Positions 1 to 40,784 of a stretch of 64,000 nt of DNA are shown one piece after another. The notes below the pieces were generated by a model. It was not told where the DNA came from. It searched no databases and saw only the letters and a program-made list of their open reading frames with translations. The DNA is from Escherichia coli (lineage in GTDB: Bacteria; Pseudomonadota; Gammaproteobacteria; Enterobacterales; Enterobacteriaceae). A program made the translations under genes and the position numbers. The DNA lies in the NCBI RefSeq assembly GCF_965641715.1, contig NZ_OZ282453.1. One strand, given 5' to 3'. Numbering within the stretch: position 1 is the stretch's first letter; each line of letters starts with the position of its first letter.

Positions 1-1
1 C

Positions 2-508
2 GAAGACTGCTATTACAAAGATCAAAGCCATCTGTCGATGGAAGAACGCGTTAAGACCAACTACGACCATCCCAGCGCGATGGATCACAGCCTGCTGCTT
101 GAGCATTTACAAGCGTTGAAACGCGGCTCGGCAATTGACCTGCCGGTTTACAGCTATGTTGAACATACGCGTATGAAAGAAACGGTGACGGTTGAGCCGA
201 AGAAGGTCATCATTCTCGAAGGCATTTTGTTGCTGACGGATGCACGTTTGCGTGACGAACTTAACTTCTCCATTTTCGTTGATACCCCGCTGGATATCTG
301 CCTGATGCGCCGCATCAAGCGTGACGTTAACGAGCGTGGGCGTTCAATGGATTCCGTGATGGCGCAATATCAAAAAACCGTGCGCCCGATGTTCCTGCAA
401 TTCATTGAGCCTTCTAAACAATATGCGGACATTATCGTGCCGCGCGGCGGGAAAAACCGCATCGCGATCGATATATTGAAAGCGAAAATAAGTCAGTTCT
501 TTGAATAA
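2..508 (+). CDS. udk: Uridine kinase, C-terminal part (5-prime end lies outside the window)
   Basis: Open frame runs from the window edge with no stop; translation ...[30 protein letters not shown]...[11 protein letters not shown] matches the C-terminal two-thirds of enterobacterial Udk as I recall it. Confidence 0.9.
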
Positions 509-599
509 GCTTGATAAATTGTGTACCGTTCAGTGATAACCTGGTATGCCCTTGACGTAATTGGCGTTAAGGGAGTGATGCGCGAAAGGAGAAAATGCC

Positions 600-1181
600 A
601 TGCGTCTGTGTGACCGAGATATTGAAGCCTGGCTTGATGAAGGCCGTTTGTCGATCAACCCACGTCCGCCAGTGGAGCGTATTAACGGCGCGACGGTGGA
701 TGTACGCCTGGGCAATAAATTTCGTACCTTCCGTGGTCACACGGCAGCGTTTATCGATCTGAGCGGTCCCAAAGATGAAGTGAGCGCCGCGCTTGACCGC
801 GTGATGAGCGATGAGATCGTTCTCGACGAGGGCGAGGCGTTCTATCTTCACCCAGGAGAGCTGGCGCTGGCGGTGACGCTGGAGTCGGTGACGCTGCCAG
901 CCGATCTGGTGGGCTGGCTGGACGGGCGTTCCTCTTTGGCGCGTCTGGGGCTGATGGTGCACGTCACCGCGCACCGCATCGATCCGGGCTGGTCTGGCTG
1001 CATTGTGCTGGAGTTCTACAACTCCGGTAAGCTGCCGCTGGCGCTGCGTCCGGGCATGTTAATTGGTGCGCTGAGCTTTGAGCCGCTTTCCGGCCCGGCG
1101 GCGCGACCTTACAACCGCCGTGAAGATGCGAAGTATCGCAACCAGCAGGGCGCGGTAGCCAGCCGAATCGATAAAGACTAA
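600..1181 (+). CDS. dcd: dCTP deaminase
   Basis: 193-aa [20 protein letters not shown]..., length and sequence match Dcd; follows udk as in E. coli. Confidence 0.95.
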
Positions 1182-1202
1182 TTCAGGCCCATTGAGGATA
1201 CC

Positions 1203-3056
1203 ATGAGACGATTTCTGACGACGCTGATGATACTCCTGGTCGTGCTGGTGGCCGGGTTATCTGCGTTAGTGTTGCTGGTGAATCCGAATGATTTCCGCGA
1301 CTATATGGTCAAGCAAGTTGCTGCACGTAGCGGTTATCAATTGCAGCTCGACGGGCCACTGCGTTGGCACGTCTGGCCGCAGCTTAGTATCCTCTCCGGG
1401 CGAATGTCTCTCACCGCCCAGGGCGCAAGCCAGCCACTGGTTCGCGCCGACAACATGCGTCTGGACGTGGCGCTTTTACCACTACTGAGTCATCAACTGA
1501 GCGTTAAGCAGGTGATGCTAAAAGGGGCAGTGATCCAACTGACGCCGCAGACGGAAGCGGTGCGCAGTGAAGACGCTCCGGTTGCACCGCGCGACAATAC
1601 CTTGCCGGATCTGTCAGACGATCGCGGATGGTCGTTTGATATATCCAGTCTTAAGGTGGCGGACAGCGTTCTGGTGTTCCAGCATGAAGATGACGAGCAG
1701 GTGACAATCCGCAATATCCGCCTGCAAATGGAACAAGATCCCCAACATCGTGGCTCATTTGAGTTCTCCGGGCGGGTTAATCGCGATCAGCGCGATCTCA
1801 CGATATCCCTTAACGGTACGGTAGATGCTTCTGATTATCCGCATGATTTAACGGCGGCTATTGAACAAATTAACTGGCAGTTGCAGGGTGCCGATTTACC
1901 AAAACAAGGTATTCAGGGGCAGGGGAGTTTCCAGGCCCAGTGGCAGGAGTCACATAAACGCCTTTCATTTAACCAAATCAGCTTGACCGCCAATGACAGT
2001 ACGCTGAGCGGGCAAGCACAGGTTACGCTGACAGAGAAACCGGAATGGCAGCTGAGACTGCAATTCCCGCAACTGAATCTTGACAACCTCATCCCGCTTA
2101 ATGAAACCGCGAATGGTGAAAACGGTGCCGCGCAGCAGGGGCAGAGCCAATCAACGTTGCCGCGCCCGGTCATTTCTTCGCGTATTGATGAACCGGCCTA
2201 TCAGGGACTGCAAGGCTTTACGGCTGATATTTTGTTGCAGGCCAGTAACGTGCGCTGGCGCGGAATGAATTTTACAGATGTTGCCACGCAAATGACCAAC
2301 AAGTCGGGTCTGCTGGAAATTACTCAACTACAGGGCAAGCTTAACGGTGGACAGGTTTCACTGCCGGGCACGCTGGACGCGACATCAATAAATCCGCGGA
2401 TAAACTTCCAGCCACGGCTGGAAAACGTTGAGATTGGCACCATTCTGAAGGCGTTTAACTATCCGATTTCGTTGACCGGAAAGATGTCACTGGCTGGTGA
2501 TTTCTCCGGTGCTGACATAGATGCCGACGCATTCCGCCACAACTGGCAAGGACAGGCACATGTCGAAATGGCCGATACGCGCATGGAAGGGATGAACTTC
2601 CAGCAGATGATTCAGCAAGCGGTAGAACGTAATGGTGGTGATGTGAAGGCCGCTGAAAACTTCGATAACGTAACGCGTCTTGACCGCTTTACCACCGATT
2701 TGACGTTGAAGGATGGCGTCGTGACGTTAAACGACATGCAAGGTCAATCGCCTGTGCTGGCGTTGACAGGGGAAGGTATGTTGAATCTGGCAGATCAAAC
2801 CTGCGACACCCAGTTTGATATTCGGGTCGTGGGTGGTTGGAACGGGGAAAGCAAACTGATTGATTTCCTTAAAGAAACGCCAGTACCGCTGCGGGTTTAT
2901 GGCAACTGGCAGCAACTCAATTACAGTCTGCAAGTGGATCAGTTACTGCGCAAACATCTACAGGACGAAGCGAAACGTCGCCTGAATGACTGGGCCGAGC
3001 GGAATAAAGATTCCCGTAATGGCAAAGATGTGAAGAAGTTGCTGGAGAAGATGTAG
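1203..3056 (+). CDS. asmA: Outer membrane assembly protein AsmA
   Basis: 617-aa ORF with N-terminal hydrophobic anchor (LMILLVVLVAGLSALVLLV); length and synteny (dcd-asmA) match AsmA. Confidence 0.9.
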   Translation: MRRFLTTLMILLVVLVAGLSALVLLVNPNDFRDYMVKQVAARSGYQLQLDGPLRWHVWPQLSILSGRMSLTAQGASQPLVRADNMRLDVALLPLLSHQLSVKQVMLKGAVIQLTPQTEAVRSEDAPVAPRDNTLPDLSDDRGWSFDISSLKVADSVLVFQHEDDEQVTIRNIRLQMEQDPQHRGSFEFSGRVNRDQRDLTISLNGTVDASDYPHDLTAAIEQINWQLQGADLPKQGIQGQGSFQAQWQESHKRLSFNQISLTANDSTLSGQAQVTLTEKPEWQLRLQFPQLNLDNLIPLNETANGENGAAQQGQSQSTLPRPVISSRIDEPAYQGLQGFTADILLQASNVRWRGMNFTDVATQMTNKSGLLEITQLQGKLNGGQVSLPGTLDATSINPRINFQPRLENVEIGTILKAFNYPISLTGKMSLAGDFSGADIDADAFRHNWQGQAHVEMADTRMEGMNFQQMIQQAVERNGGDVKAAENFDNVTRLDRFTTDLTLKDGVVTLNDMQGQSPVLALTGEGMLNLADQTCDTQFDIRVVGGWNGESKLIDFLKETPVPLRVYGNWQQLNYSLQVDQLLRKHLQDEAKRRLNDWAERNKDSRNGKDVKKLLEKM

Positions 3057-3076
3057 GTTACCAGGTGACCTGTCCT

Positions 3077-3114
3077 GTAGGCCTGATAAGACGCGTAAAG
3101 CGTCGCATCAGGCG
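3077..3114. repeat. REP (repetitive extragenic palindromic) element
   Basis: gtaggcctgataagacgcg...cgtcgcatcaggcg, the canonical E. coli REP palindrome, directly after the asmA stop. Confidence 0.6.
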
Positions 3115-3507
3115 TTCGCGGCGGCACCATTATATTCTGAATATGTAAGATCGAAGGCTGTTCCGTTCACTTGATGTTCCTCACTACTATGGAACGCTCA
3201 AGCCGGTGAACGTGCCAGGGTGGCTCAATCGCCACCACCCTGGCAACCCGGGCTCCCGGCGGTAAATCGCCGCTGGCGCGGTTCCCTCATCTTATTCCTT
3301 TCGGCTATCGGGTACGGGCGCGAGGTAACATCCCTGTAAAACGCGCCCTCAGCCCACATCCGTGTGGGCTGCCCCGGCCTACAGGAAACGATTCGGCGAT
3401 TTACAGCCGGACCCACACCCCCGCTGTAATGTCCATGTACCATAGACAACGCTTCATTGCTGAAGTTATAAGGCGTTACGCAGCATCGGGTAAAATGACC
3501 GATACCA

Positions 3508-5091
3508 TCACACCTCGTACTCCATCTCGCCATCCTTACGCAGCGGTATAATCTGCACCTTCTGCACGCGATGGCTTTCTACCTGCAACGTTTTAAGCAA
3601 ATAATCCCCCACCTGAACTTCTTCGCCAGGTTTTGGAATACGCTGCAAATATTCCATCAATAGCCCGGCAATGGTGTGATATTCACGTTTTTCATCCAGC
3701 GGCAGCGGCACATATTGCACCAGATCTTCCAGCGGCATATGACCATTCGCCGTCCAGGAACCGTCCGCATTCTTCTGAATATCATGGCGGGCGTCGATCT
3801 CTTCCACTTCGTTCGGTAAGTTACCGGCAATGGTTTCAGTGACGTCACTTAATGTCACAATCCCTTCCACCGAGCCAAACTCATCCACCACAAAAGCAAA
3901 GTGCGTGCGGGCATTACGGAACTGCTCCAGGGCAGGTAACAACGGCAAGGTTTCCGGGAACACCAGCGGCTGGCGAATCAACACCCGCAGGTTGAGCGGT
4001 TCGCCGCGCAGAGACTGTTGTAGCAGGTCGATAACGTGAACAACACCGAGCAAATCTTCTGCGTCATCACCGTCGGTAACCACCAGCCGCGTATGCTGAT
4101 TTCGCTCCAGCAACTGGCGGATTTCTTCTTCCGGCGCGTTGAGATCGATATGCTCAATATCGTGGCGCGACGTCATAATGCTGCTGACGGTACGCTGGTT
4201 AAGATTAAGTACCCGCTCAATCATCCGCCGTTCCTGCGGATTAAAGATCTGCTGGTTACCATGATCCACCAGCATGGACGCGGTTTCGGCGTCCAGTTCC
4301 GCATCTTCTTTTTGCCCGCTAAGCAGGCGCATTACCGCTTCGGTAGTCCGCTGGCGTAGCGTCTGGTTAGCGGAAAGAAAACGTCGCCGGTTAAAGATAG
4401 CCAACTGATTGAGCGCCTCGATCATCACCGAGAAACCAATAGCAGCGTACAGGTAGCCTTTCGGAATGACGAAGCCGAAACCTTCTGCCACCAGGCTAAA
4501 GCCAATCATCAACAGGAAGCTTAAGCAGAGAATAACGATGGTCGGGTGACTGTTAACAAATTGCGTTAACGGCTTGCTGGCCATCAACATCAGGCTGATA
4601 GCGATAACCACGGCGGCCATCATGACCAGTAAATGGTCGACCATCCCGACGGCGGTAATCACTGAGTCGAGTGAGAAGATGGCGTCCAGTACCACAATTT
4701 GCGTCACCACGCCCCAGAACTTCGCACCTTTGCGTTGTGTGGGATTATTGCTGTCTTTCCCTTCCAGCCGTTCGTTCAGCTCCATCGTGGCTTTGAACAA
4801 CAGGAAGAAACCACCAAACAGCATGATTAAGTCGCGGGCGCTAAAGGTAAACGAGCGGAAGCTGAACAGCGGTTGAGTCAGGGTGACCAGCCAGGAGATT
4901 GACGCCAGCAGTAACAGGCGCATTAACATCGCCAGCAGCAGCCCGGTAACCCGTGCGCGGTCGCGCTGCTTCGGCGGTAGTTTTTCGGCGAGGATGGCAA
5001 TAAAGACCAGGTTATCAATGCCGAGGACCAGTTCGATCACAATCAGCGTGATTAACCCGGCCCAGATAGACGGATCGGCAATCCATTCCAT
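3508..5091 (-). CDS. yegH: TerC-family inner membrane protein with C-terminal CBS/CorC domains
   Basis: Long minus-strand ORF; N-terminal multi-TM region ([39 protein letters not shown]) and C-terminal CBS/transporter-associated region. Start placed at the internal ATG (527 aa) rather than the 549-aa ORF-track start. Confidence 0.85.
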
Positions 5092-5251
5092 AGTAAGTAC
5101 AAAACCTATTCGTTGTATGACAAATGTCACAATTCGATCATGGATAAATCGGGGCAAAAATGCAATGTTGCAGCACTATTTATCTCATATTATTTGAGGG
5201 TAATAACCTCACATTATCCCTGAATTAAAAGTGGTAATAATAAAACATTAT

Positions 5252-5266
5252 TTAAGAAATATCGCA
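5252..5266 (+). promoter_or_regulatory. Candidate RcsAB box of the colanic acid (cps) promoter
   Basis: ttaagaaatatcgca resembles the RcsAB box consensus TaAGaatatTCctA and sits about 490 bp upstream of the wza ATG in an AT-rich leader. Assigned by eye. Confidence 0.3.
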
Positions 5267-5532
5267 TGTGGAGACGCAATATTAAATATTGTCAACATAA
5301 AGAAACTCCTAAAAACCATATTGAATGACACTTAATATAATTCTTAAAAATAGCCAATTGCCGAATTGTTACCTTGCCTGCTATTCCGTTAGCTGTAACA
5401 CTTCCTCCTGCATTATTGGAGAGCCAATATTCAATTACCATAATGTCACCTTATATTCGGAAGTTAATTTCCGCAATAACCCTTTCTCATCAACGACTGT
5501 ATGTTGAGAGGGTTTTAAAAATTAAGCTAAAT

Positions 5533-5571
5533 CAGTGTATTGGTAGCTAAAAAGCCAGGGGCGGTAGCGTG
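5533..5571 (+). promoter_or_regulatory. JUMPStart element with ops site (RfaH-dependent antitermination) in the wza leader
   Basis: cagtgtattggtagctaaaaagccaggggcggtagcgtg contains the ops motif GGCGGTAGCGTG (5560-5571) on the coding strand, about 180 bp upstream of wza. Confidence 0.8.
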
Positions 5572-5749
5572 TCTGGATGCCTGAAAGACCAGTCTGAATT
5601 ATTCTGTCAATAGCCTGCGGATGAAATCAATTTTTTTAGGACTGATGCCAGTTAAATTTTTATTCAATTAACTGCAAGGTAAATGTGCATGGCGACATTG
5701 CTATTAATAGTGCACAGGATAATTACTCTGCCAAAGTGATAAATAAACA

Positions 5750-6889
5750 ATGATGAAATCCAAAATGAAATTGATGCCATTATTGGTGTCAGTAACCTTG
5801 ATAAGCGGTTGCACAGTACTTCCGGGCAGCAATATGTCGACGATGGGTAAAGACGTCATCAAACAGCAGGACGCTGATTTCGATCTCGACAAAATGGTGA
5901 ATGTTTATCCGTTGACCCCGCGCCTGATTGATCAATTACGTCCACGACCCAACGTAGCGCGCCCCAATATGACGCTGGAAAGTGAGATCGCGAATTACCA
6001 GTATCGCGTCGGGCCGGGGGACGTTCTGAATGTCACCGTCTGGGATCACCCGGAACTCACCACGCCAGCCGGTCAGTACCGCAGCTCCAGCGACACCGGC
6101 AACTGGGTACAGCCTGACGGCACTATGTTTTACCCGTATATCGGCAAGGTTCACGTAGTCGGGAAAACGCTCGCTGAAATCCGCAGTGATATTACCGGGC
6201 GCTTAGCGACGTACATCGCTGACCCGCAGGTGGACGTTAATATCGCCGCCTTCCGCTCGCAAAAAGCCTATATCTCCGGCCAGGTGAATAAATCCGGTCA
6301 ACAGGCGATCACCAACGTGCCACTGACCATTCTCGACGCCATCAACGCCGCAGGTGGCCTGACCGACACCGCTGACTGGCGCAACGTGGTGCTAACACAC
6401 AATGGTCGTGAAGAGCGTATTTCTTTGCAGGCGCTGATGCAAAACGGCGACCTCAACCAGAATCGACTGCTTTACCCCGGCGATATTCTCTACGTGCCGC
6501 GTAATGATGATCTGAAAGTATTTGTGATGGGTGAAGTGAAGAAACAGAGCACCCTGAAAATGGACTTTAGCGGCATGACCCTGACTGAAGCCCTGGGCAA
6601 TGCTGAAGGCATCGACATGACCACCTCCAACGCCAGCGGCATCTTTGTCATTCGTCCGCTGAAAGGCGAGGGCGGGCGTAACGGCAAGATTGCCAATATC
6701 TACCAGCTGGATATGTCCGATGCCACGTCGCTGGTGATGGCGACAGAATTCCGCCTGCAACCTTATGACGTGGTGTATGTCACCACCGCCCCGGTTTCCC
6801 GCTGGAACCGTCTGATCAATCAGTTGCTGCCAACTATTAGCGGTGTCCGTTACATGACGGATACAGCCAGCGACATTCATAACTGGTAA
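5750..6889 (+). CDS. wza: Colanic acid export outer-membrane lipoprotein Wza
   Basis: 379 aa; lipoprotein signal with lipobox LISGC; first gene of the wza-wzb-wzc unit. Confidence 0.95.
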
Positions 6890-6894
6890 TCGTC

Positions 6895-7338
6895 ATGTTT
6901 AACAACATCTTAGTTGTCTGTGTCGGCAATATTTGCCGTTCCCCGACGGCGGAACGCTTACTGCAACGTTATCACCCGGAGCTGAAAGTGGAGTCCGCTG
7001 GACTCGGCGCGCTGGTCGGTAAGGGCGCTGATCCTACCGCCATCAGCGTTGCCGCAGAGCATCAACTGTCTCTGGAAGGTCACTGTGCACGGCAAATCAG
7101 CCGCCGCCTGTGTCGCAACTATGACCTGATTTTGACCATGGAAAAGCGCCATATCGAACGCTTATGCGAGATGGCACCTGAGATGCGCGGCAAAGTGATG
7201 CTGTTTGGTCACTGGGATAACGAATGTGAAATCCCCGATCCGTATCGCAAAAGCCGGGAAACGTTTGCAGCGGTGTACACATTACTTGAACGGTCTGCCC
7301 GCCAGTGGGCGCAGGCATTGAACGCAGAGCAGGTATAA
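6895..7338 (+). CDS. wzb: Low-molecular-weight protein-tyrosine phosphatase Wzb
   Basis: 147 aa; N-terminal CX5R P-loop (VCVGNICRSP) typical of LMW-PTP. Confidence 0.95.
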   Translation: MFNNILVVCVGNICRSPTAERLLQRYHPELKVESAGLGALVGKGADPTAISVAAEHQLSLEGHCARQISRRLCRNYDLILTMEKRHIERLCEMAPEMRGKVMLFGHWDNECEIPDPYRKSRETFAAVYTLLERSARQWAQALNAEQV

Positions 7339-7340
7339 GA

Positions 7341-9503
7341 ATGACAGAAAAAGTAAAACAACATGCCGCTCCGGTAACGGGCAGTGATGAAATCGATATT
7401 GGTCGCCTGGTCGGCACCGTCATTGAAGCGCGCTGGTGGGTGATTGGCATCACCGCTGTATTTGCCGTCTGTGCCGTGGTTTACACCTTCTTCGCCACGC
7501 CGATTTATAGTGCCGACGCACTGGTACAAATCGAGCAAAACAGCGGCAATTCGTTAGTACAGGATATCGGCTCGGCATTAGCCAACAAACCGCCTGCATC
7601 GGACGCCGAGATCCAGTTGATTCGTTCGCGTCTGGTGCTTGGTAAAACGGTGGACGATCTCGACCTCGATATTGCGGTGAGCAAAAACACGTTCCCGATT
7701 TTCGGGGCGGGCTGGGATCGCCTGATGGGACGGCAGAACGAGACGGTGAAAGTGACTACCTTTAACCGCCCGAAAGAGATGGCGGATCAGGTGTTTACGC
7801 TTAATGTGCTGGACGATAAAAACTACACCCTGAGCAGTGATGGCGGCTTTAGCGCCCGTGGGCAAGCGGGCCAGATACTGAAAAAAGAAGGCGTCACGCT
7901 GATGGTTGAAGTCATTCACGCCAGCCCGGGCAGTGAGTTTACCATCACCAAATACTCCACGCTGGGGATGATCAACCAACTGCAAAACAGCCTGACGGTA
8001 ACGGAGAACGGCAAAGACGCAGGCGTACTGAGCCTGACTTATACCGGTGAAGATCGCGAACAGATCCGCGACATTCTTAACAGCATCGCCCGTAACTATC
8101 AGGAACAAAATATTGAGCGCAAATCGGCGGAAGCGTCGAAAAGCCTCGCTTTCCTCGCGCAACAGTTACCGGAAGTACGTAGCCGCCTTGATGTTGCCGA
8201 AAACAAACTGAATGCCTACCGTCAGGATAAAGATTCTGTTGATCTGCCGCTGGAAGCGAAAGCGGTGCTCGATTCGATGGTGAACATCGACGCGCAGTTG
8301 AACGAACTGACCTTTAAAGAAGCGGAAATCTCCAAGCTGTACACCAAAGTTCACCCGGCGTACCGCACGCTGCTGGAGAAACGGCAGGCGCTGGAAGACG
8401 AAAAAGCCAAACTTAATGGTCGCGTAACGGCGATGCCGAAAACCCAGCAGGAAATTGTGCGTCTGACCCGCGATGTCGAGTCTGGTCAGCAGGTCTATAT
8501 GCAACTGCTGAATAAAGAGCAGGAGCTGAAAATCACCGAGGCCAGCACCGTCGGCGATGTGCGCATTGTTGACCCGGCAATCACCCAGCCTGGCGTGCTA
8601 AAACCGAAGAAAGTGCTGATTATCCTTGGGGCGATTATCCTTGGTCTGATGCTCTCTATCGTGGGTGTGCTGCTGCGCTCGTTGTTTAATCGCGGTATCG
8701 AAAGCCCGCAAGTGCTGGAAGAACACGGTATCAGCGTCTATGCCAGCATCCCGCTGTCGGAATGGCAGAAAGCGCGCGATAGCGTCAAAACCATCAAAGG
8801 AGTTAAACGCTATAAACAGAGCCAGCTACTGGCGGTGGGGAATCCAACCGATCTGGCGATTGAAGCCATCCGCAGTCTGCGTACCAGTCTGCACTTCGCG
8901 ATGATGCAGGCGCAGAACAATGTGTTGATGATGACCGGGGTTAGCCCGTCAATCGGTAAAACCTTTGTCTGCGCCAACCTGGCGGCGGTGATCAGCCAGA
9001 CCAATAAACGGGTGTTGTTGATCGACTGCGATATGCGCAAAGGCTACACCCATGAGCTGTTGGGCACTAATAACGTCAATGGCCTGTCGGAAATTCTGAT
9101 TGGTCAGGGCGATATTACTACCGCTGCTAAACCGACCTCGATTGCCAAATTTGACCTGATCCCGCGCGGTCAGGTACCGCCAAATCCTTCTGAACTGTTG
9201 ATGAGCGAACGCTTTGCCGAACTGGTGAACTGGGCGAGTAAAAACTATGACCTGGTGTTGATTGATACGCCGCCGATTCTGGCAGTGACCGATGCGGCAA
9301 TTGTTGGTCGTCATGTCGGAACCACGTTAATGGTGGCTCGTTATGCGGTCAACACATTGAAAGAAGTGGAAACCAGTCTGAGCCGCTTTGAGCAAAACGG
9401 TATTCCGGTGAAAGGGGTGATTCTGAACTCCATCTTCCGCCGCGCCAGCGCGTATCAGGATTATGGCTATTACGAATACGAATATAAGTCGGATGCGAAA
9501 TAA
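7341..9503 (+). CDS. wzc: Tyrosine autokinase / polysaccharide co-polymerase Wzc
   Basis: 720 aa from MTEKVKQH; Walker A GVSPSIGKT; C-terminal tyrosine cluster YQDYGYYEYEYKSDAK; ORF-track start at 7305 overlaps wzb and is rejected. Confidence 0.95.
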   Translation: MTEKVKQHAAPVTGSDEIDIGRLVGTVIEARWWVIGITAVFAVCAVVYTFFATPIYSADALVQIEQNSGNSLVQDIGSALANKPPASDAEIQLIRSRLVLGKTVDDLDLDIAVSKNTFPIFGAGWDRLMGRQNETVKVTTFNRPKEMADQVFTLNVLDDKNYTLSSDGGFSARGQAGQILKKEGVTLMVEVIHASPGSEFTITKYSTLGMINQLQNSLTVTENGKDAGVLSLTYTGEDREQIRDILNSIARNYQEQNIERKSAEASKSLAFLAQQLPEVRSRLDVAENKLNAYRQDKDSVDLPLEAKAVLDSMVNIDAQLNELTFKEAEISKLYTKVHPAYRTLLEKRQALEDEKAKLNGRVTAMPKTQQEIVRLTRDVESGQQVYMQLLNKEQELKITEASTVGDVRIVDPAITQPGVLKPKKVLIILGAIILGLMLSIVGVLLRSLFNRGIESPQVLEEHGISVYASIPLSEWQKARDSVKTIKGVKRYKQSQLLAVGNPTDLAIEAIRSLRTSLHFAMMQAQNNVLMMTGVSPSIGKTFVCANLAAVISQTNKRVLLIDCDMRKGYTHELLGTNNVNGLSEILIGQGDITTAAKPTSIAKFDLIPRGQVPPNPSELLMSERFAELVNWASKNYDLVLIDTPPILAVTDAAIVGRHVGTTLMVARYAVNTLKEVETSLSRFEQNGIPVKGVILNSIFRRASAYQDYGYYEYEYKSDAK

Positions 9504-9504
9504 C

Positions 9505-9565
9505 GACGCCTGCATTCGCACCGCCCCGTAGGCCGGATAAGGCGCTCACGCCGCATCCGGCAAGC
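9505..9565. repeat. REP element(s) downstream of wzc
   Basis: gtaggccggataaggcgctcacgccgcatccggca palindromic REP consensus between wzc and wcaA. Confidence 0.55.
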
Positions 9566-9595
9566 AAACCAGCTCATAAGCCGGGAGTACAACCT

Positions 9596-10435
9596 ATGAA
9601 AGACAATCCGCTGATCTCAATCTATATGCCAACCTGGAACCGCCAACAACTGGCGATTCGGGCGATAAAATCGGTCCTGCGCCAGGACTACAGCAACTGG
9701 GAGATGATCATCGTGGATGATTGCTCCACCTCCTGGGAACAACTGCAACAGTACGTCAGCGCCCTCAACGATCCGCGTATCACCTACATTCACAACGACA
9801 TTAACAGCGGGGCGTGCGCGGTACGTAACCAGGCGATTATGCTGGCGCAAGGGGAATATATCACCGGGATTGATGACGATGACGAATGGACACCCAACCG
9901 TCTGAGCGTCTTCCTCGCCCATAAACAGCAACTGGTCACTCACGCCTTTTTGTACGCTAACGACTACGTATGCCAGGGAGAAGTTTATTCCCAACCGGCA
10001 AGCTTACCACTGTATCCCAAATCGCCGTACTCACGCCGCCTGTTCTATAAACGCAATATCATTGGCAATCAGGTCTTTACCTGGGCATGGCGTTTCAAAG
10101 AGTGTTTGTTCGATACCGAACTGAAAGCGGCACAGGATTACGACATCTTCCTGCGGATGGTGGTGGAGTATGGCGAACCGTGGAAAGTGGAAGAGGCGAC
10201 GCAGATCCTGCATATCAATCACGGCGAAATGCAGATCACCTCGTCACCGAAAAAATTCTCCGGATACTTCCACTTTTACCGCAAGCACAAAGACAAATTT
10301 GACCGCGCCAGCAAAAAATATCAGCTGTTTACCCTCTACCAGATCCGCAATAAACGCATGACCTGGCGCACTTTGCTGACGCTGCTGTCGGTGCGTAACG
10401 GCAAACGTCTGGCTGATGGTATTCGGGGGCGCTAA
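9596..10435 (+). CDS. wcaA: Colanic acid glycosyltransferase (GT2)
   Basis: 279 aa, position and length match WcaA; GT2 N-terminal motif (IYMPTWNR...DDCS). Confidence 0.9.
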   Translation: MKDNPLISIYMPTWNRQQLAIRAIKSVLRQDYSNWEMIIVDDCSTSWEQLQQYVSALNDPRITYIHNDINSGACAVRNQAIMLAQGEYITGIDDDDEWTPNRLSVFLAHKQQLVTHAFLYANDYVCQGEVYSQPASLPLYPKSPYSRRLFYKRNIIGNQVFTWAWRFKECLFDTELKAAQDYDIFLRMVVEYGEPWKVEEATQILHINHGEMQITSSPKKFSGYFHFYRKHKDKFDRASKKYQLFTLYQIRNKRMTWRTLLTLLSVRNGKRLADGIRGR

Positions 10436-10437
10436 AG

Positions 10438-10926
10438 ATGCTGGAAGATCTGCGCGCCAACAGCTGGAGTTTACGCCCGTGCTGCATGGTTCTTGCCTAT
10501 CGTGTTGCTCATTTTTGTTCGGTGTGGCGCAAAAAGAACGTCCTCAACAATCTGTGGGCGGCCCCGCTGCTGGTGCTGTATCGCATTATCACCGAATGCT
10601 TTTTCGGTTATGAAATCCAGGCAGCCGCAACCATTGGCCGCCGCTTTACTATCCATCACGGTTACGCCGTAGTGATCAATAAAAACGTGGTTGCGGGGGA
10701 TGATTTCACCATTCGCCACGGCGTCACTATCGGCAATCGGGGTGCCGATAACATGGCATGTCCACACATTGGCAACGGCGTCGAACTCGGTGCCAACGTC
10801 ATTATTCTTGGTGATATCACGCTTGGTAACAACGTCACCGTGGGCGCGGGCAGCGTGGTGCTCGACTCTGTCCCGGACAACGCGCTGGTGGTGGGAGAAA
10901 AAGCGCGAGTGAAGGTAATCAAATGA
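10438..10926 (+). CDS. wcaB: Colanic acid acetyltransferase (hexapeptide-repeat family)
   Basis: 162 aa, left-handed beta-helix hexapeptide repeats (IGNRGADN..IGNGVELGANVIILGDITLGNNVTVGAGSVV). Confidence 0.9.
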   Translation: MLEDLRANSWSLRPCCMVLAYRVAHFCSVWRKKNVLNNLWAAPLLVLYRIITECFFGYEIQAAATIGRRFTIHHGYAVVINKNVVAGDDFTIRHGVTIGNRGADNMACPHIGNGVELGANVIILGDITLGNNVTVGAGSVVLDSVPDNALVVGEKARVKVIK

Positions 10927-12140
10927 ATATTTTGCAATTTAATGTGCGACTGGCGGAAGGCGGGGCAGCAGGTGTGGCGTTAGATCTCCACCAGCGTGCG
11001 CTGCAACAGGGGCTGGCGTCACATTTTGTCTACGGCTACGGCAAAGGCGGCAAAGAGAGCGTCAGCCATCAAAACTATCCGCAGGTCATCAAACATACGC
11101 CGCGGATGACTGCGATGGCGAACATTGCCCTGTTTCGTCTGTTTAATCGCGATCTGTTCGGCAATTTCAATGAGTTATATCGCACCATTACTCGCACACC
11201 GGGTCCGGTGGTCCTGCATTTTCATGTGCTGCACAGCTACTGGTTGAATCTTAAGAGCGTGGTGCGCTTTTGCGAAAAAGTGAAAAACCACAAACCGGAT
11301 GTCACTCTGGTCTGGACGCTGCACGACCACTGGAGCGTTACCGGGCGCTGCGCCTTTACCGACGGTTGTGAAGGCTGGAAAACGGGCTGCCAGAAATGCC
11401 CGACCTTAAATAATTATCCGCCGGTGAAGATTGATCGGGCGCACCAGCTGGTGGCGGGCAAACGCCAGTTATTCCTTGAGATGCTGGTGCTGGGCTGTCA
11501 GTTTATTTCCCCCAGCCAGCATGTGGCTGACGCTTTCAATAGCCTGTACGGTCCAGGGCGTTGCCGGATCATCAATAATGGCATTGATATGGCAACCGAA
11601 GCGATTCTGGCGGATTTGCCTCCGGTGCGCGAAACTCAGGGCAAGCCGAAAATCGCGGTGGTAGCGCATGACCTGCGTTACGACGGCAAAACTAACCAGC
11701 ACCTGGTGCGCGAGATGATGGCGCTGGACGACAAAATCGAACTGCATACCTTCGGTAAGTTCTCGCCGTTCACCGCTGGCAACGTGGTCAATCACGGCTT
11801 TGAAACCGACAAACGTAAGCTGATGAGCGCGCTCAATCAGATGGATGCGCTGGTATTCAGTTCTCGCGTCGATAACTACCCGCTGATTTTGTGTGAGGCG
11901 TTATCAATTGGCGTGCCGGTGATTGCCACCCATAGCGACGCGGCGCGTGAAGTGTTGCAAAAATCCGGCGGTAAAACCGTCAGCGAAGAAGAGGTGCTGC
12001 AACTGGTCCAGTTAAGCAAACCGGAAATCGCGCAGGCGATATTTGGTACCACGCTGGCTGAGTTCAGCCAACGCAGCCGCGCCGCCTACAGTGGACAACA
12101 GATGCTGGAGGAGTATGTCAACTTCTATCAGAATCTGTAG
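10923..12140 (+). CDS. wcaC: Colanic acid glycosyltransferase (GT4)
   Basis: 405 aa; start overlaps the wcaB stop (ATGA); synteny. Confidence 0.9.
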   Translation: MNILQFNVRLAEGGAAGVALDLHQRALQQGLASHFVYGYGKGGKESVSHQNYPQVIKHTPRMTAMANIALFRLFNRDLFGNFNELYRTITRTPGPVVLHFHVLHSYWLNLKSVVRFCEKVKNHKPDVTLVWTLHDHWSVTGRCAFTDGCEGWKTGCQKCPTLNNYPPVKIDRAHQLVAGKRQLFLEMLVLGCQFISPSQHVADAFNSLYGPGRCRIINNGIDMATEAILADLPPVRETQGKPKIAVVAHDLRYDGKTNQHLVREMMALDDKIELHTFGKFSPFTAGNVVNHGFETDKRKLMSALNQMDALVFSSRVDNYPLILCEALSIGVPVIATHSDAAREVLQKSGGKTVSEEEVLQLVQLSKPEIAQAIFGTTLAEFSQRSRAAYSGQQMLEEYVNFYQNL

Positions 12141-13332
12141 CTACCTGCTGCTGCCGCTGATCTACCTGCTGGTTAACGTCAAAATCGCCCAGCTTGGCGA
12201 AAGTTTCCCCATCACCATCGTCACTTTTTTACCTGTCTTGTTACTGCTGTTTTTAGAACGCATCAGCGTTAAAAAATTGATGATTGCCTTAGGGATTGGC
12301 GCGGGACTCACGGCGTTTAACTACCTGTTTGGTCAGTCGTTGGATGCCAGTAAATACGTCACTTCAACCATGCTGTTTGTCTATATTGTGATCATTATTG
12401 GCATGGTGTGGAGTATTCGCTTTAAAACGATTTCGCCACACAACCATCGCAAGATATTACGTTTCTTTTATCTGGTGGTCGGACTGGTGGTGGCGCTGGC
12501 GGCGGTGGAGATGGCGCAAATTATCCTCACCGGTGGCAGTAGTATTATGGAGTCGATTTCGAAATATCTGATTTACAGCAACAGCTATGTGCTGAATTTC
12601 ATCAAATTCGGCGGCAAGCGCACGACAGCACTTTATTTCGAACCGGCATTTTTCGCTCTGGCATTAATCTCAATTTGGCTCAGCATCAAACAGTTTGGTA
12701 TCAAAACGCCTAAAACCGATGCTATGATTCTCGCAGGGATAATATTATCCGGATCGTTTTCAGGGGTTATGACCTTTATCCTGTTTTATTTGCTGGAGTG
12801 GGCATTTCAATATCTGAATAAAGAGGCGATTAAGAAAAAGTTACCGTTAGCATTGATTTCTCTGGCTGTATTCCTGGTTGGTGTGGTAATCGCGTTTCCT
12901 TATATTTCCACCCGTCTGGGCGATTTAGGTACGGAAGGATCGTCATCGTATTATCGTATTGTCGGTCCGCTGGTGATGGTCGGTTATTCTTTGACCCATA
13001 TTGACGGTGTAGTCAGATTTGGCTCACTTTATGAATATGTTGCATCATTCGGAATATTTAACGGTGCGGATGTCGGAAAAACCATAGACAATGGTTTGTA
13101 TCTGCTGATTATTTATTTTTCCTGGTTCGCGGTGTTTTTATCGCTGTGGTACATGGGGAAAGTGATAAAAATGATGATCAACGCTTTTGGTGATAACCGC
13201 AATTTTCGCGTGCAATTATATCTTTTTACTCCGGTATCGCTGTTTTTTACCGGTTCGATATTTAGCCCGGAATATGCATTTTTAATCGTCTGTCCGTTTA
13301 TTTTGCGAAAAGCGTTAAATATTACGAGGTAA
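12115..13332 (+). CDS. wcaD: Colanic acid polymerase (Wzy-like)
   Basis: 405 aa polytopic membrane protein from [14 protein letters not shown]; the ORF-track start at 12043 is inside wcaC and is rejected. Confidence 0.85.
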
Positions 13333-13342
13333 GAATAAGAAC

Positions 13343-14089
13343 ATGTTGCTTAGCATAATCACTGTCGCGTTTCGTAACCTCGAAGGGATAGTCAAAACAT
13401 ATGCCTCGCTGGCGCATCTGGCGCAGGCGGACGATATCAGCTTCGAATGGATTGTTGTCGATGGCGGTTCCAACGATGGCACCCGTGAGTATCTGGAAAA
13501 TCTCAATGGTATCTATAACCTACGCTTTGTCAGCGAGCCAGATAACGGTATCTACGACGCCATGAACAAAGGCATTGCGATGGCACAAGGCAAGTTCGCG
13601 TTGTTTCTCAACTCAGGTGATATTTTTCATCAGGATGCCGCAAATTTTGTCCGTAAGTTAAAAGTGCAAAAAGATAACGTGATGATCACCGGCGATGCGC
13701 TGCTGGATTTTGGCGACGGGCATAAAATTAAACGTAGCGCCAAACCGGGTTGGTATATTTATCACAGCCTGCCCGCCAGTCATCAGGCGATATTTTTCCC
13801 GGTATCCGGTTTGAAAAAATGGCGTTATGACCTGGAATATAAAGTTTCTTCTGATTACGCGCTGGCAGCCAAAATGTATAAAGCCGGTTATGCATTTAAA
13901 AAACTCAATGGTCTGGTGTCTGAATTTTCTATGGGTGGGGTATCAACCACCAATAATATGGAATTATGTGCTGACGCCAAAAAAGTCCAACGGCAAATAT
14001 TACATGTGCCTGGCTTCTGGGCAGAATTATCCTGGCATTTACGCCAGCGTACTACCTCAAAGACGAAAGCCTTATATAACAAAAGCTGA
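13343..14089 (+). CDS. wcaE: Colanic acid glycosyltransferase (GT2)
   Basis: 248 aa; synteny and length. Confidence 0.9.
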
Positions 14090-14104
14090 ATATAAGGGAA
14101 AACG

Positions 14105-14653
14105 ATGCAGGATTTAAGTGGATTCTCGGTGCCGAAAGGGTTCCGGGGGGGCAACGCTATTAAAGTGCAATTGTGGTGGGCAGTACAGGCAACATTATTT
14201 GCCTGGTCGCCACAAGTATTGTATCGCTGGCGGGCATTTTTATTACGTTTATTCGGCGCAAAAATAGGAAAAAACGTAGTTATTCGTCCGTCAGTAAAAA
14301 TTACCTATCCGTGGAAATTAACCTTAGGTGATTACGCGTGGGTCGGCGATGACGTCAATTTATATACCCTCGGTGAAATAACCATTGGCGCACATTCGGT
14401 GATATCGCAAAAAAGTTATTTATGCACCGGGAGCCACGACCATGCAAGTCAACATTTCACCATTAACGCCACGCCTATTGTGATTGGCGAGAAATGCTGG
14501 CTGGCAACCGATGTTTTTGTTGCCCCAGGCGTCACGATTGGCGACGGCACCGTCGTGGGTGCGCGAAGCAGTGTTTTTAAATCGCTTCCGGCAAATGTGG
14601 TTTGCCGGGGGAATCCCGCAGTGGTGATACGCAAACGCGTTGAAACTGAATAA
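14105..14653 (+). CDS. wcaF: Colanic acid acetyltransferase (hexapeptide-repeat family)
   Basis: 182 aa; hexapeptide repeats; synteny. Confidence 0.9.
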   Translation: MQDLSGFSVPKGFRGGNAIKVQLWWAVQATLFAWSPQVLYRWRAFLLRLFGAKIGKNVVIRPSVKITYPWKLTLGDYAWVGDDVNLYTLGEITIGAHSVISQKSYLCTGSHDHASQHFTINATPIVIGEKCWLATDVFVAPGVTIGDGTVVGARSSVFKSLPANVVCRGNPAVVIRKRVETE

Positions 14654-14679
14654 ATTCAAAAAATACAGAGGAATAAGAC

Positions 14680-15801
14680 ATGTCAAAAGTCGCTCTCATC
14701 ACCGGTGTAACCGGACAAGACGGTTCTTACCTGGCAGAGTTTCTGCTGGAAAAAGGTTACGAGGTACATGGTATTAAGCGTCGCGCATCGTCATTCAACA
14801 CCGAGCGCGTGGATCACATTTATCAGGATCCGCACACCTGCAACCCGAAATTCCATCTGCATTATGGCGACCTGAGTGATACCTCCAACCTGACGCGCAT
14901 TTTGCGTGAAGTGCAGCCGGATGAAGTGTACAACCTGGGCGCAATGAGCCACGTTGCGGTCTCTTTTGAGTCACCAGAATATACCGCTGACGTCGACGCG
15001 ATGGGTACGCTGCGCCTGCTCGAGGCGATCCGCTTCCTCGGTCTGGAAAAGAAAACCCGTTTCTATCAGGCTTCCACTTCTGAACTGTACGGTCTGGTGC
15101 AGGAAATTCCGCAGAAAGAAACCACGCCGTTCTATCCGCGATCTCCGTATGCGGTCGCCAAACTGTATGCCTACTGGATCACCGTTAACTACCGCGAATC
15201 CTACGGCATGTACGCCTGTAACGGTATTCTCTTCAACCATGAATCCCCGCGCCGCGGCGAAACCTTCGTTACCCGCAAAATCACCCGCGCAATCGCCAAT
15301 ATCGCCCAGGGGCTGGAGTCGTGCCTGTACCTCGGCAATATGGATTCCCTGCGTGACTGGGGCCACGCCAAAGACTACGTAAAAATGCAGTGGATGATGC
15401 TGCAACAGGAACAGCCAGAAGATTTCGTTATCGCGACCGGCGTTCAGTACTCCGTACGTCAGTTCGTGGAAATGGCGGCAGCACAGCTGGGCATCAAACT
15501 GCGCTTTGAAGGCACGGGTGTTGAAGAGAAGGGCATTGTGGTTTCCGTCACCGGGCATGACGCGCCGGGCGTTAAACCGGGCGATGTGATTATCGCTGTT
15601 GACCCGCGCTACTTCCGTCCGGCAGAAGTTGAAACGCTGCTCGGCGACCCGACCAAAGCGCACGAAAAACTGGGCTGGAAACCGGAAATCACCCTCAGAG
15701 AGATGGTGTCTGAAATGGTGGCTAATGACCTCGAAGCGGCGAAAAAACACTCTCTGCTGAAATCTCACGGCTACGACGTGGCGATCGCGCTGGAGTCATA
15801 A
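14680..15801 (+). CDS. gmd: GDP-mannose 4,6-dehydratase
   Basis: 373 aa; Rossmann motif [10 protein letters not shown]; highly conserved Gmd sequence. Confidence 0.95.
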
Positions 15802-15803
15802 GC

Positions 15804-16769
15804 ATGAGTAGACAACGCATTTTTATCGCTGGCCATCGCGGGATGGTCGGTTCTGCCATCAGGCGGCAGCTCGAACAGCGCGGTGATGTGGAACTGGTAT
15901 TACGCACCCGCGACGAGCTGAACCTGCTGGACAGCCGCGCCGTGCATGATTTCTTTGCCAGCGAACGTATTGACCAGGTCTATCTGGCGGCGGCGAAAGT
16001 GGGCGGCATTGTTGCCAACAACACCTATCCGGCGGATTTCATCTATCAGAACATGATAATTGAGAGCAACATCATTCACGCCGCGCATCAGAACGACGTG
16101 AACAAACTGCTGTTTCTCGGATCGTCCTGTATCTACCCGAAACTGGCAAAACAGCCGATGGCAGAAAGCGAGTTGTTGCAGGGCACGCTGGAGCCGACCA
16201 ACGAGCCTTACGCCATTGCCAAAATCGCCGGGATCAAACTGTGCGAATCTTACAACCGCCAGTATGGACGCGATTACCGCTCAGTCATGCCGACCAACCT
16301 GTATGGCCCGCATGACAACTTCCACCCGAGTAATTCGCATGTGATCCCTGCATTGCTGCGTCGCTTCCACGAGGCGACGGCACAGAATGCACCGGACGTG
16401 GTGGTGTGGGGCAGCGGTACACCGATGCGCGAATTTCTGCACGTCGATGATATGGCGGCGGCGAGCATTCATGTCATGGAGCTGGCGCATGAAGTCTGGC
16501 TGGAAAACACCCAGCCGATGCTGTCACACATTAACGTCGGCACGGGCGTTGACTGCACTATCCGCGAGCTGGCGCAAACCATCGCCAAAGTAGTGGGTTA
16601 CAAAGGTCGGGTGGTTTTTGATGCCAGCAAACCGGATGGTACGCCGCGCAAACTGCTGGATGTGACGCGCCTGCATCAGCTTGGCTGGTATCACGAAATC
16701 TCACTGGAAGCGGGGCTTGCCAGCACTTACCAGTGGTTCCTTGAGAATCAAGACCGCTTTCGGGGGTAA
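15804..16769 (+). CDS. fcl: GDP-L-fucose synthase (GDP-4-keto-6-deoxymannose 3,5-epimerase/4-reductase)
   Basis: 321 aa; [19 protein letters not shown]; follows gmd. Confidence 0.95.
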
Positions 16770-17251
16770 TGATGTTTTTACGTCAGGAAGACTTTGCCAC
16801 GGTAGTGCGCTCCACACCGCTTGTCTCTCTCGACTTTATTGTCGAGAACAGTCGCGGCGAGTTTCTGCTTGGCAAAAGAACCAACCGCCCGGCGCAGGGT
16901 TACTGGTTTGTGCCAGGAGGGCGCGTGCAGAAAGACGAAACGCTGGAAGCCGCATTTGAGCGGCTGACGATGGCGGAACTGGGGCTGCGTCTGCCGATAA
17001 CAGCAGGCCAGTTTTACGGTGTCTGGCAGCACTTTTATGACGATAACTTCTCTGGCACGGATTTCACCACGCACTATGTGGTGCTCGGTTTTCGCTTCAG
17101 AGTAGCGGAAGAAGAACTGTTACTGCCGGATGAGCAGCATGACGATTACCGCTGGCTGACGCCGGACGCACTGCTCGCCAGTGACAATGTTCACGCTAAC
17201 AGCCGCGCCTATTTTCTCGCTGAGAAGCGTGCCGGAGTACCCGGATTATGA
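16769..17251 (+). CDS. gmm: GDP-mannose mannosyl hydrolase (Nudix)
   Basis: 160 aa; Nudix-type fold region; synteny (wcaH). Confidence 0.9.
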
Positions 17252-18471
17252 AAATACTGGTCTACGGCATTAACTACTCGCCGGAGTTAACCGGCATCGG
17301 CAAATACACCGGCGAGATGGTGGAATGGCTGGCGGCACAAGGTCATGAGGTGCGGGTTATTACCGCACCGCCTTACTACCCGCAGTGGCAGGTGGGCGAG
17401 AACTATTCCGCCTGGCGCTACAAACGAGAAGAGGGGGCCGCCACGGTGTGGCGCTGCCCGCTGTACGTGCCAAAACAGCCGAGCACCCTGAAACGCTTGT
17501 TGCATCTCGGCAGTTTTGCCGTCAGCAGTTTTTTCCCGTTGATGGCGCAACGTCGCTGGAAGCCGGATCGTATTATCGGCGTGGTGCCAACGCTGTTTTG
17601 CACGCCAGGAATGCGCCTGCTGGCGAAGCTCTCTGGTGCGCGTATCGTGCTGCATATTCAGGATTACGAAGTGGACGCCATGCTGGGGCTGGGCCTTGCC
17701 GGAAAAGGCAAAGGCGGCAAAGTGGCACAGCTGGCAACGGCGTTCGAACGTAGCGGACTGCATAACGTCGATAACGTCTCCACGATTTCGCGTTCGATGA
17801 TGAATAAAGCCATCGAAAAAGGCGTGGCGGCGGAAAACGTCATCTTCTTCCCCAACTGGTCGGAAATCGCCCGTTTTCAGCATGTTGCAGATGCAGATGT
17901 TGATGCCCTTCGTAACCAGCTTGGCCTGCCGGATAACAAAAAAATCATTCTTTACTCCGGCAATATTGGTGAAAAGCAGGGGCTGGAAAACGTTATTGAA
18001 GCTGCCGATCGTCTGCGCGATGAACCGCTGATTTTTGCCATTGTCGGGCAGGGCGGCGGCAAAGCGCGGCTGGAAAAAATGGCGCAGCAGCGTGGACTGC
18101 GCAACATGCAATTTTTCCCGCTGCAATCGTATGACGCTTTACCCGCACTGCTGAAGATGGGCGATTGCCATCTGGTGGTGCAAAAACGCGGCGCGGCAGA
18201 TGCCGTATTGCCGTCGAAACTGACCAATATTCTGGCAGTAGGCGGTAACGCGGTGATTACTGCTGAAGCCTACACAGAACTGGGGCAGCTTTGCGAAACC
18301 TTTCCGGGCATTGCGGTTTGCGTTGAACCGGAATCGGTTGAGGCGCTGGTGGCGGGGATTCGTCAGGCGCTCCTGCTGCCCAAACACAACACGGTGGCAC
18401 GTGAATATGCCGAACGCACGCTCGATAAAGAGAACGTGTTACGTCAATTTATAAATGATATTCGGGGATAA
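17248..18471 (+). CDS. wcaI: Colanic acid glycosyltransferase (GT4)
   Basis: 407 aa; synteny. Confidence 0.9.
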
Positions 18472-18473
18472 TT

Positions 18474-19910
18474 ATGGCGCAGTCGAAACTCTATCCAGTT
18501 GTGATGGCAGGTGGCTCCGGTAGCCGCTTATGGCCGCTTTCCCGCGTACTTTACCCCAAGCAGTTTTTATGCCTGAAAGGCGATCTCACCATGCTGCAAA
18601 CCACCATCTGTCGCCTGAACGGCGTGGAGTGCGAAAGCCCGGTGGTGATTTGCAATGAGCAGCACCGCTTTATTGTCGCGGAACAGCTGCGTCAACTGAA
18701 CAAACTCACCGAGAACATTATTCTCGAACCGGCAGGGCGTAACACTGCACCTGCCATTGCACTGGCGGCGCTGGCGGCAAAACGTCATAGCCCGGAGAGC
18801 GACCCGTTAATGCTGGTATTGGCGGCGGATCATGTGATTGCCGATGAAGACGCGTTCCGTGCCGCCGTGCGTAATGCCATGCCGTATGCCGAAGCGGGCA
18901 AGCTGGTGACCTTTGGCATTGTGCCGGATCTACCAGAAACCGGTTATGGCTATATTCGTCGCGGTGAAGTGTCTGCGGGTGAGCAGGATACGGTGGCCTT
19001 TGAAGTGGCGCAGTTTGTCGAAAAACCGAATCTGGAAACCGCCCAGGCCTATGTGGCAAGCGGCGAATATTACTGGAACAGCGGCATGTTCCTGTTCCGC
19101 GCCGGACGCTATCTCGAAGAACTGAAAAAATATCGCCCGGATATTCTCGACGCCTGTGAAAAAGCGATGAGCGCCGTCGATCCGGATCTCGATTTTATTC
19201 GCGTGGATGAAGAAGCGTTTCTGGCCTGCCCGGAAGAGTCGGTGGATTACGCGGTCATGGAACGTACGGCAGATGCTGTTGTGGTGCCGATGGATGCGGG
19301 CTGGAGCGATGTCGGTTCCTGGTCTTCATTATGGGAGATTAGCGCCCACACCGCCGAGGGCAACGTTTGCCACGGCGATGTGATTAATCACAAAACTGAA
19401 AACAGCTATGTGTATGCCGAATCTGGCCTGGTCACCACCGTCGGGGTGAAAGATCTGGTAGTGGTGCAGACCAAAGATGCGGTGCTGATTGCCGACCGTA
19501 ACGCGGTGCAGGATGTGAAAAAAGTGGTCGAGCAGATCAAAGCCGATGGTCGCCATGAGCATCGGGTACATCGCGAAGTCTATCGCCCGTGGGGCAAATA
19601 TGACTCTATCGACGCGGGCGACCGCTACCAGGTGAAACGCATCACCGTGAAACCGGGCGAAGGCTTGTCGGTACAGATGCACCATCACCGCGCGGAACAC
19701 TGGGTGGTTGTCGCGGGAACGGCAAAAGTCACTATTGACGGTGATATCAAACTGCTTGGTGAAAACGAGTCGATTTATATTCCGCTGGGGGCGACGCACT
19801 GCCTGGAAAACCCGGGGAAAATTCCGCTCGATTTAATTGAAGTGCGCTCCGGCTCTTATCTCGAAGAGGATGATGTGGTGCGCTTCGCGGATCGCTACGG
19901 ACGGGTGTAA
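18474..19910 (+). CDS. cpsB: Mannose-1-phosphate guanylyltransferase (colanic acid copy)
   Basis: 478 aa; N-terminal nucleotidyltransferase motif [14 protein letters not shown] and C-terminal cupin/PMI-like domain; GC-rich. Confidence 0.95.
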
Positions 19911-20012
<102 letters not shown>

Positions 20013-20102
20013 AATGAATGCGAAACCGCGGTGTAAATAACGACAAAAACAAAATTGGCCGTTTCGGTCAGGGCCAACTATTGCCTGAAAAAGGGTAACG
20101 AT

Positions 20103-21473: not shown

Positions 21474-21527
21474 TGTCGGATCTTCCCTTACCCCATTGCG
21501 GGTAAGGGGCTAATAACAGGAACAACG

Positions 21528-22922: not shown

Positions 22923-22923
22923 T

Positions 22924-24402: not shown

Positions 24403-24439
24403 GTTGTTGTTTTCGGTTCCGACAACGGTTGCCGGGTGC

Positions 24440-24711
<272 letters not shown>

Positions 24712-24773
24712 CAAAAAACGGCAACGAACACAACAAACACAGCCTCACCTGGCATCACATTTATGAGGAAAAA

Positions 24774-27271: not shown

Positions 27272-27281
27272 AGGAGAACGC

Positions 27282-30002: not shown

Positions 30003-30041
30003 CAGTGCTCTGGTAGCTGTAAAGCCAGGGGCGGTAGCGTG
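30003..30041 (+). promoter_or_regulatory. JUMPStart element with ops site upstream of the O-antigen cluster
   Basis: cagtgctctggtagctgtaaagccaggggcggtagcgtg; ops GGCGGTAGCGTG at 30030-30041, about 75 bp upstream of the rmlB start. Confidence 0.8.
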
Positions 30042-32100: not shown

Positions 32101-32157
32101 TAGTTTTTGCATCTTGTTCGTGATGGTGGAGTAAGATGAATTAAAAGGAATGATGAA

Positions 32158-33036: not shown

Positions 33037-33040
33037 TAAA

Positions 33041-35741: not shown

Positions 35742-35747
35742 TATGGA

Positions 35748-37614: not shown

Positions 37615-37632
37615 TATAAGGGTAGTGTTTTT

Positions 37633-40783: not shown

Positions 40784-40784
40784 C

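Follow-up and report, generated by a model that had tools for sequence, protein, structure and literature searches.

The 64,000-nucleotide stretch of Escherichia coli DNA analysed here (the window) most probably carries a standard, intact chromosomal colanic acid operon of the group 1-like, Wzx/Wzy-dependent kind, a reading to which we give a probability of roughly 0.96. The operon, wza-wzb-wzc-wcaA...wcaM, comprises 20 genes at positions 5750-28676 and is bordered by yegH on one side and by galF on the other. The system is already well known and is found here in its ordinary intact state. Annotation quality control aside, the meaning of an intact operon is very small. No feature of the sequence speaks against this reading. 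The strain is genetically equipped to make colanic acid and to regulate it by Wzc/Wzb tyrosine phosphorylation, as nearly every E. coli genome is. The locus could be used as a negative control when scanning for pseudogenisation. The features on which the analysis is built are collected in Table 1.

Table 1. Genes, protein motifs and leader element of the colanic acid locus, with window positions.
Feature	Position	Strand	Evidence
JUMPstart element, leader 5' of wza	5533-5571	+	Rfam RF01707, 57.3 bits vs gathering score 35
wza, outer-membrane polysaccharide export lipoprotein, 379 aa	5750-6889	+	100% amino acid identity to K-12 Wza
wzb, low-molecular-weight protein-tyrosine phosphatase, 147 aa	6895-7338	+	NCBIfam equivalog, K-12 identity
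Wzb P-loop C9-V-G-N-I-C-R15-S16 (C-X5-R-S/T), residues 9-16	6919-6942	+	Regular-expression search
Wzb D115-P116, DP loop	7237-7242	+	Motif scan
wzc, BY-kinase and polysaccharide co-polymerase, 720 aa plus stop	7341-9503	+	NCBIfam equivalog, K-12 alignment
Wzc RK-cluster loop K477-K492, including D480, R490 and K492	8769-8816	+	Residues confirmed in translation
Wzc EX2RX2R motif EAIRSLR, residues 508-514 (E508, R511, R514)	8862-8882	+	Motif scan
Wzc Walker A GVSPSIGKT, residues 533-541 (K540, T541)	8937-8963	+	Regular-expression scan of translation
Wzc Walker A' VLLIDCDMR, residues 558-566, then Y569	9012-9047	+	Motif scan
Wzc Walker B LVLIDTPP, residues 638-645 (D642)	9252-9275	+	Motif scan
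Wzc C-terminal tyrosine cluster YQDYGYYEYEYKSDAK, residues 705-720	9453-9500	+	Motif scan; identical to K-12
wcaA, wcaB, wcaC, wcaD, wcaE, wcaF, gmd, fcl, gmm, wcaI, cpsB, cpsG, wcaJ, wzxC, wcaK, wcaL, wcaM	9596-28676	+	K-12 orthologues, annotated gene order
ugd, UDP-glucose 6-dehydrogenase	45422-46588	+	NCBIfam equivalog, 798 bits vs cut-off 757

The reading frame at 7341-9503 runs on the plus strand from ATG to TAA over 720 codons and corresponds exactly to wzc. The original prediction had assigned this interval to Wzb and Wzc together, which holds for wzc but leaves out wzb; the latter lies just 5' of it, at 6895-7338 on the same strand, and is in turn preceded by the wza frame. The arrangement is that of the species at large. 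Region 5200-29500 was detected by megablast in essentially all of 5,426 complete E. coli genomes, and the same gene order is kept in the 3,547 complete genomes whose coverage of it is 80% or more. Full-length wzb-wzc is carried by 4,821 of the 5,426. Moreover, the annotations of K-12 and UTME-3 agree on the gene order, and A30 and 1504D004 show it too.

Gene-by-gene global alignment was carried out with the MG1655 operon (b2062-b2043; Wzc NP_416564.4, Wzb NP_416565.1) as the K-12 reference. All the 20 genes have the same order and the same lengths as in MG1655, and each has an ATG start and a terminal stop, with neither internal stops nor alignment gaps, which bears out the earlier claim that none of them is frameshifted or truncated. 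The proteins differ from their K-12 counterparts at 0-13 residues each, with no difference (100% identity) in Wza, Wzb, WcaB, WcaD and Gmd and 13 differences in WcaM. Nucleotide divergence amounts to 1.3-4.7% per gene and is nearly all synonymous; by the Nei-Gojobori method, the 20 genes together have 540.5 synonymous and 69.5 non-synonymous differences from K-12 (pN/pS 0.039). Per-gene dN/dS ranges from 0 to 0.11 in the 17 genes wcaA-wcaM, and the kinase domain of Wzc (447-720) holds 16 synonymous differences vs one non-synonymous. Because the cluster-wide dN/dS against K-12 is 0.039, the comparison indicates purifying selection on the cluster, with its genes apparently maintained and not decaying. 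Differences in length are seen between genes. The wzxC-wcaK spacer measures 371 bp here and 275 bp in K-12, with one additional REP/naRNA4-type unit in the window, and the cpsB-cpsG spacer measures 192 bp as against 103 bp.

Judged by its sequence, Wzc is a predicted BY-kinase and PCP-2a protein, combining a Wzz/PCP domain, a transmembrane pair, the Walker motifs, EX2RX2R, the RK-cluster, a tyrosine tail and an equivalog match. The NCBIfam Wzc equivalog NF008568 scores 1510.8 bits vs a cut-off of 1068 over positions 1-720 of 720, and the Pfam domains are Wzz (16-107), WZC_N (111-204), GNVR (367-447) and AAA_31. The periplasmic domain is flanked by two hydrophobic segments, one at about residues 32-52 and the other at about 425-446. 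The motifs of BY-kinases are defined as Walker A (A/G-X5-G-K-S/T), Walker A' (hhhhDxDxR) and Walker B (hhhhDxxP), and the roles of the RK-cluster residues have been described for K-12 Wzc (PMC11206214). The Walker A motif and the six-tyrosine C-terminus, both named in the original prediction, were found in the translation, as were all the nucleotide-contacting residues (D480, R490, K492, Y569 and E572). The EX2RX2R motif of Wzc serves both oligomerisation and Wzb docking (PMC9245664). The tail tyrosines are Y705, Y708, Y710, Y711, Y713 and Y715, and a stop-free 11-mer with six or more tyrosines occurs nowhere else in a six-frame translation of the 64-kb window. Modification of all six is disputed, as the reports conflict over Y705: it has been reported, from earlier work, as not autophosphorylated (PMC9245664), whereas a 2026 mass-spectrometry study found it to be the commonest singly phosphorylated site (PMC12881504).

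Alignment with the characterised K-12 proteins shows an identical Wzb and a Wzc identical at 711 of 720 residues (98.75%), with the same catalytic and regulatory residues. Both the Walker A lysine (K540) and the CX5R cysteine (C9), whose loss would have spoken against an intact system, are present. The nine Wzc differences are T39A, L43V, N159D, M179I, A191V, V202I, F293Y, G425V and I488V, none of which falls inside the Walker motifs, EX2RX2R, Y569 or the tyrosine cluster. TM1 holds T39A and L43V, the helical arm holds F293Y, TM2 has G425V at its start and the RK loop has I488V, and the remaining four (N159D, M179I, A191V and V202I) belong to the jellyroll domain, which spans residues 112-204 (PMC12881504). 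As exchanges among V/I/L/M, A/V, F/Y and N/D, these substitutions are conservative by residue type, G425V being the least so. A39, D159 and V488 are common alleles, because they are found in other non-K-12 strains compared: A39 and V488 in all three and D159 in two of them. Among the four E. coli strains used for comparison, three have V488 and none has L43V, M179I, A191V, V202I, F293Y or G425V. Furthermore, all the residues mutated in PMC12881504 are unchanged, namely K332, Y334, T335, H338, D301, K307, E354 and R374 of Wzc and D99, E102 and Y155 of Wza. Wzc also aligns over its full length with the cryo-EM chains of K-12 Wzc (such as 9r62), in which K540 was changed to methionine by design (K540M); the window protein has the wild-type lysine.

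Wzb is, by the same kind of evidence, a predicted low-molecular-weight protein-tyrosine phosphatase (LMW-PTP), with the P-loop, the DP-loop aspartate and matches to both family and equivalog models. The CX5R P-loop described earlier is read as CVGNICRS at residues 9-16. Asp115 of the DP loop, which had gone unmentioned, is present as well. In the LMW-PTP family, the DP-loop aspartate acts as general acid. The NCBIfam equivalog NF007520 scores 329.1 bits vs a cut-off of 243, Pfam LMWPc scores 160.4 bits, and the K-12 Wzb structure PDB 2FEK is identical to the window protein over all 147 residues. C9 and R15 are the catalytic motif residues of Wzb, and the identical K-12 protein dephosphorylates phospho-Wzc (PMC9245664). 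Additionally, Wza is matched by NCBIfam PRK15078 (729 bits) and by Pfam Poly_export, SLBB_2 and Wza_C, and its N-terminus reads ...LISGC.

The mechanism that these proteins would follow is drawn from work on their K-12 counterparts. Wzc would be a co-polymerase of the inner membrane whose P-loop tyrosine autokinase domain faces the cytoplasm. With its tail unphosphorylated, it would assemble as an octamer, supporting WcaD in polymerisation and docking onto the outer-membrane channel Wza. Adjacent subunits would then cross-phosphorylate their tails by means of K540/T541, Walker A' and D642 of Walker B, whereupon the ring would fall apart. Cytoplasmic Wzb, with C9 as nucleophile together with R15 and D115, would dock on the EX2RX2R helix and remove the phosphates, and the cycle would be reset. 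Such an autokinase/phosphatase cycle, coupled to octamer assembly and disassembly, has been described for Wzc/Wzb (PMC9245664, PMC12881504). The term phosphorelay, under which the pair had been presented, is a misnomer, as the two proteins form a cycle of BY-kinase autophosphorylation and LMW-PTP dephosphorylation (PMC9245664). Wzc would also phosphorylate Ugd at Tyr71, a known Wzc site (PMC2516531), and residue 71 of the Ugd encoded in the window is a tyrosine. We infer that Wzc and Wzb are likely to be active and that colanic acid would be made upon Rcs induction.

NCBI lists the exact Wzc sequence under the name "tyrosine-protein kinase Wzc [Escherichia coli]" (e.g., EEW8734333.1), on at least 59 contigs. 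One draft E. coli genome, GCA_047532575.1 (contig JBLKGJ010000001.1), is 99.99% identical in nucleotides over window positions 1-19503, with two mismatches and no gaps, and its Wzc is identical to that of the window. Among the 5,426 complete E. coli genomes, the best reaches at most 97.8% identity over the cluster and at most 98.4% over wzb-wzc. The flanks reach 99.8%, and E. coli genomes match the O-antigen region at 100%. The patchy identity per kilobase, which alternates between strains, marks the cluster as a recombination mosaic beside the O-antigen locus. Recombination mosaicism is a well-known property of this region. An origin in Shigella or a cryptic clade, raised by the cluster identity of at most 97.8%, was rejected in view of the flanks, the O-antigen region, the mosaic pattern and the draft genome.

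The yegH-wza region (592 bp) is colinear with K-12, with 12 substitutions and no indels. The JUMPstart/ops element is identical to that of K-12 in the alignment, with the ops sequence GGCGGTAGCGTG at 5560-5571 and GGCGGTAG at 5560-5567. JUMPstart/ops is an RfaH-dependent antitermination element. A search upstream of wza for an RcsAB box gave no match with three or fewer mismatches to the consensus TAAGAATATTCCTA, from which the true K-12 operator may differ; the five matches to this consensus all lie in the AT-rich O-antigen region and are no better than chance. Over 5100-9700, a promoter scan returned one sigma-70-like site, fewer than in shuffled sequences, and terminator-like hairpins occur at chance level. 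The Rcs regulators are needed for expression of the operon, and Rcs is the phosphorelay that controls it. RcsA, RcsB, RcsC, RcsD, RcsF and RfaH are all encoded outside the window.

The operon might be structurally intact and still be phenotypically silent or impaired, whether through missense changes (Wzc G425V, the jellyroll substitutions, WcaM), a promoter polymorphism or an Rcs defect elsewhere. We regard this as very unlikely. The location of the regulators beyond the window leaves room for such a defect, and position 5421 carries an A>G change from K-12 in the only sigma-70-like -35 hexamer before wza, but the same G is also found in UTME-3. Six of the Wzc substitutions are absent from the four other strains and four of the nine fall in the jellyroll domain, the deletion of which strongly lowers colanic acid (PMC12881504). 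Against this, all the substitutions are of the conservative kind, G425V least, and the low dN/dS of the cluster speaks for maintained genes. Moreover, because at least 59 public contigs carry the same protein, the Wzc allele appears to be circulating and not a recent lesion.

A milder effect is conceivable but very improbable, namely that L43V, M179I, A191V, V202I, F293Y and G425V of Wzc subtly alter how repeat units are captured, how long the chains become or how stable the oligomer is. V202I, M179I and A191V sit in the jellyroll domain, which binds glycan. If such an effect were real, a rare mosaic Wzc allele would confer a colanic acid phenotype distinct from that of K-12.

The Wzc/Wzb pair has relatives at other loci. 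The group 1 K30 Wzc/Wzb (PDB 7NHR, 2WJA) and Etk/Etp (PDB 3CIO) share the architecture of PCP-2a, BY-kinase and tyrosine cluster with an LMW-PTP partner, and their regulatory cycle is the same as that of Wzc/Wzb (PMC8285477). As paralogues or orthologues encoded elsewhere, they are far less similar, with about 811 bits vs 1555 for Wzc and 164 vs 330 for Wzb, and the downstream biosynthesis genes of those loci differ from the ones found here. The idea that wza-wzb-wzc come from a group 1 (K30-like) capsule locus or an etp/etk pair, to which the matches of Wzc to the Etk-type model PRK09841 (897.5 bits), to K30 Wzc structures (about 811 bits) and to Etk 3CIO might point, has a negligible probability and is refuted by synteny and equivalog cut-offs: the PRK09841 score does not reach the cut-off of 1248 set for that model, whereas the colanic acid Wzc equivalog clears its own, Wzc is 98.75% identical to the K-12 colanic acid protein, and wcaA-wcaM directly 3' with yegH 5' make up the arrangement of the colanic acid locus.

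The colanic acid cluster is a recombination mosaic, as its identity per kilobase switches between reference strains. Across 5,426 complete Escherichia coli genomes, the cluster as a whole (window 5700-29700) reaches at most 97.8% identity to any one of them, and the best identity for wzb-wzc is 98.4%. The flank upstream of the cluster is up to 99.8% identical to complete E. coli genomes, while the O-antigen region shares 100% identity with a few of them. Additionally, the draft genome GCA_047532575.1 matches the window from 1 to 19503 at 99.99%.

Two spacers of the colanic acid cluster are longer than in K-12. The one between wzxC and wcaK holds a tandem pair of REP-type units spaced 96 bp apart, both matching Rfam naRNA4, whereas the K-12 (MG1655) spacer is 275 bp long with a single match. 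The cpsB-cpsG spacer is 103 bp long in K-12, and K-12 also has the algC RNA motif upstream of cpsG. Upstream of wza, only one sigma-70-like match was found; within it, K-12 has A at position 5421, where the window and strain UTME-3 both carry G.

Features of the window discussed here, in order of position
Feature	Coordinates	Strand	Description
Sigma-70-like promoter match (predicted)	5417-5444		Upstream of wza; TGGAGA, 16-nt spacer, CATAAT
cpsB-cpsG spacer	19911-20102		192 bp; REP-like sequence inside
algC RNA motif (Rfam)	20049-20098		Directly upstream of cpsG
wzxC-wcaK spacer	24403-24773		371 bp
naRNA4 matches (Rfam)	24488-24558 and 24584-24654	-	In wzxC-wcaK spacer
Second JUMPstart/ops element	30003-30041		GGCGGTAG at 30030; upstream of rmlB
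O-antigen gene cluster	30116-43603		Low G+C; rmlBDAC, wzx, glycosyltransferase, putative wzy, WbbJ-like O-acetyltransferase, 3 further glycosyltransferases, manC, manB
NAD-dependent sugar epimerase gene	46654-47658	-	334 aa; between ugd and wzzB, opposite strand
his operon leader	56241-56364	-	Rfam His_leader, 131.6 bits
STnc240 sRNA match (Rfam)	58661-58735	+	Upstream of ORF 58876-60240

The O-antigen gene cluster, headed by the second JUMPstart/ops element, has a G+C content of about 30% across 34-42 kb. Only 6 of the 5,426 complete genomes match its central part (33500-40800) at 99.6-100% identity. In UniProt, names from Shigella dysenteriae are also attached to two proteins, one identical to this Wzy and the other a close Wzx cluster-mate. 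Furthermore, the O-antigen manB (42233-43603) and the colanic acid cpsG (20103-21473) are 95.8% identical in nucleotides over 1,335 bp, forming a long direct repeat with copies about 22 kb apart, which could mediate recombination or gene conversion.

The epimerase gene between ugd and wzzB was found in strain 1504D004, which has the same O-antigen cluster, and is absent from this position in strain A30. Its product may be a UDP-sugar 4-epimerase serving the O-antigen. Further along the window, the His_leader precedes hisG-hisIE on the minus strand.
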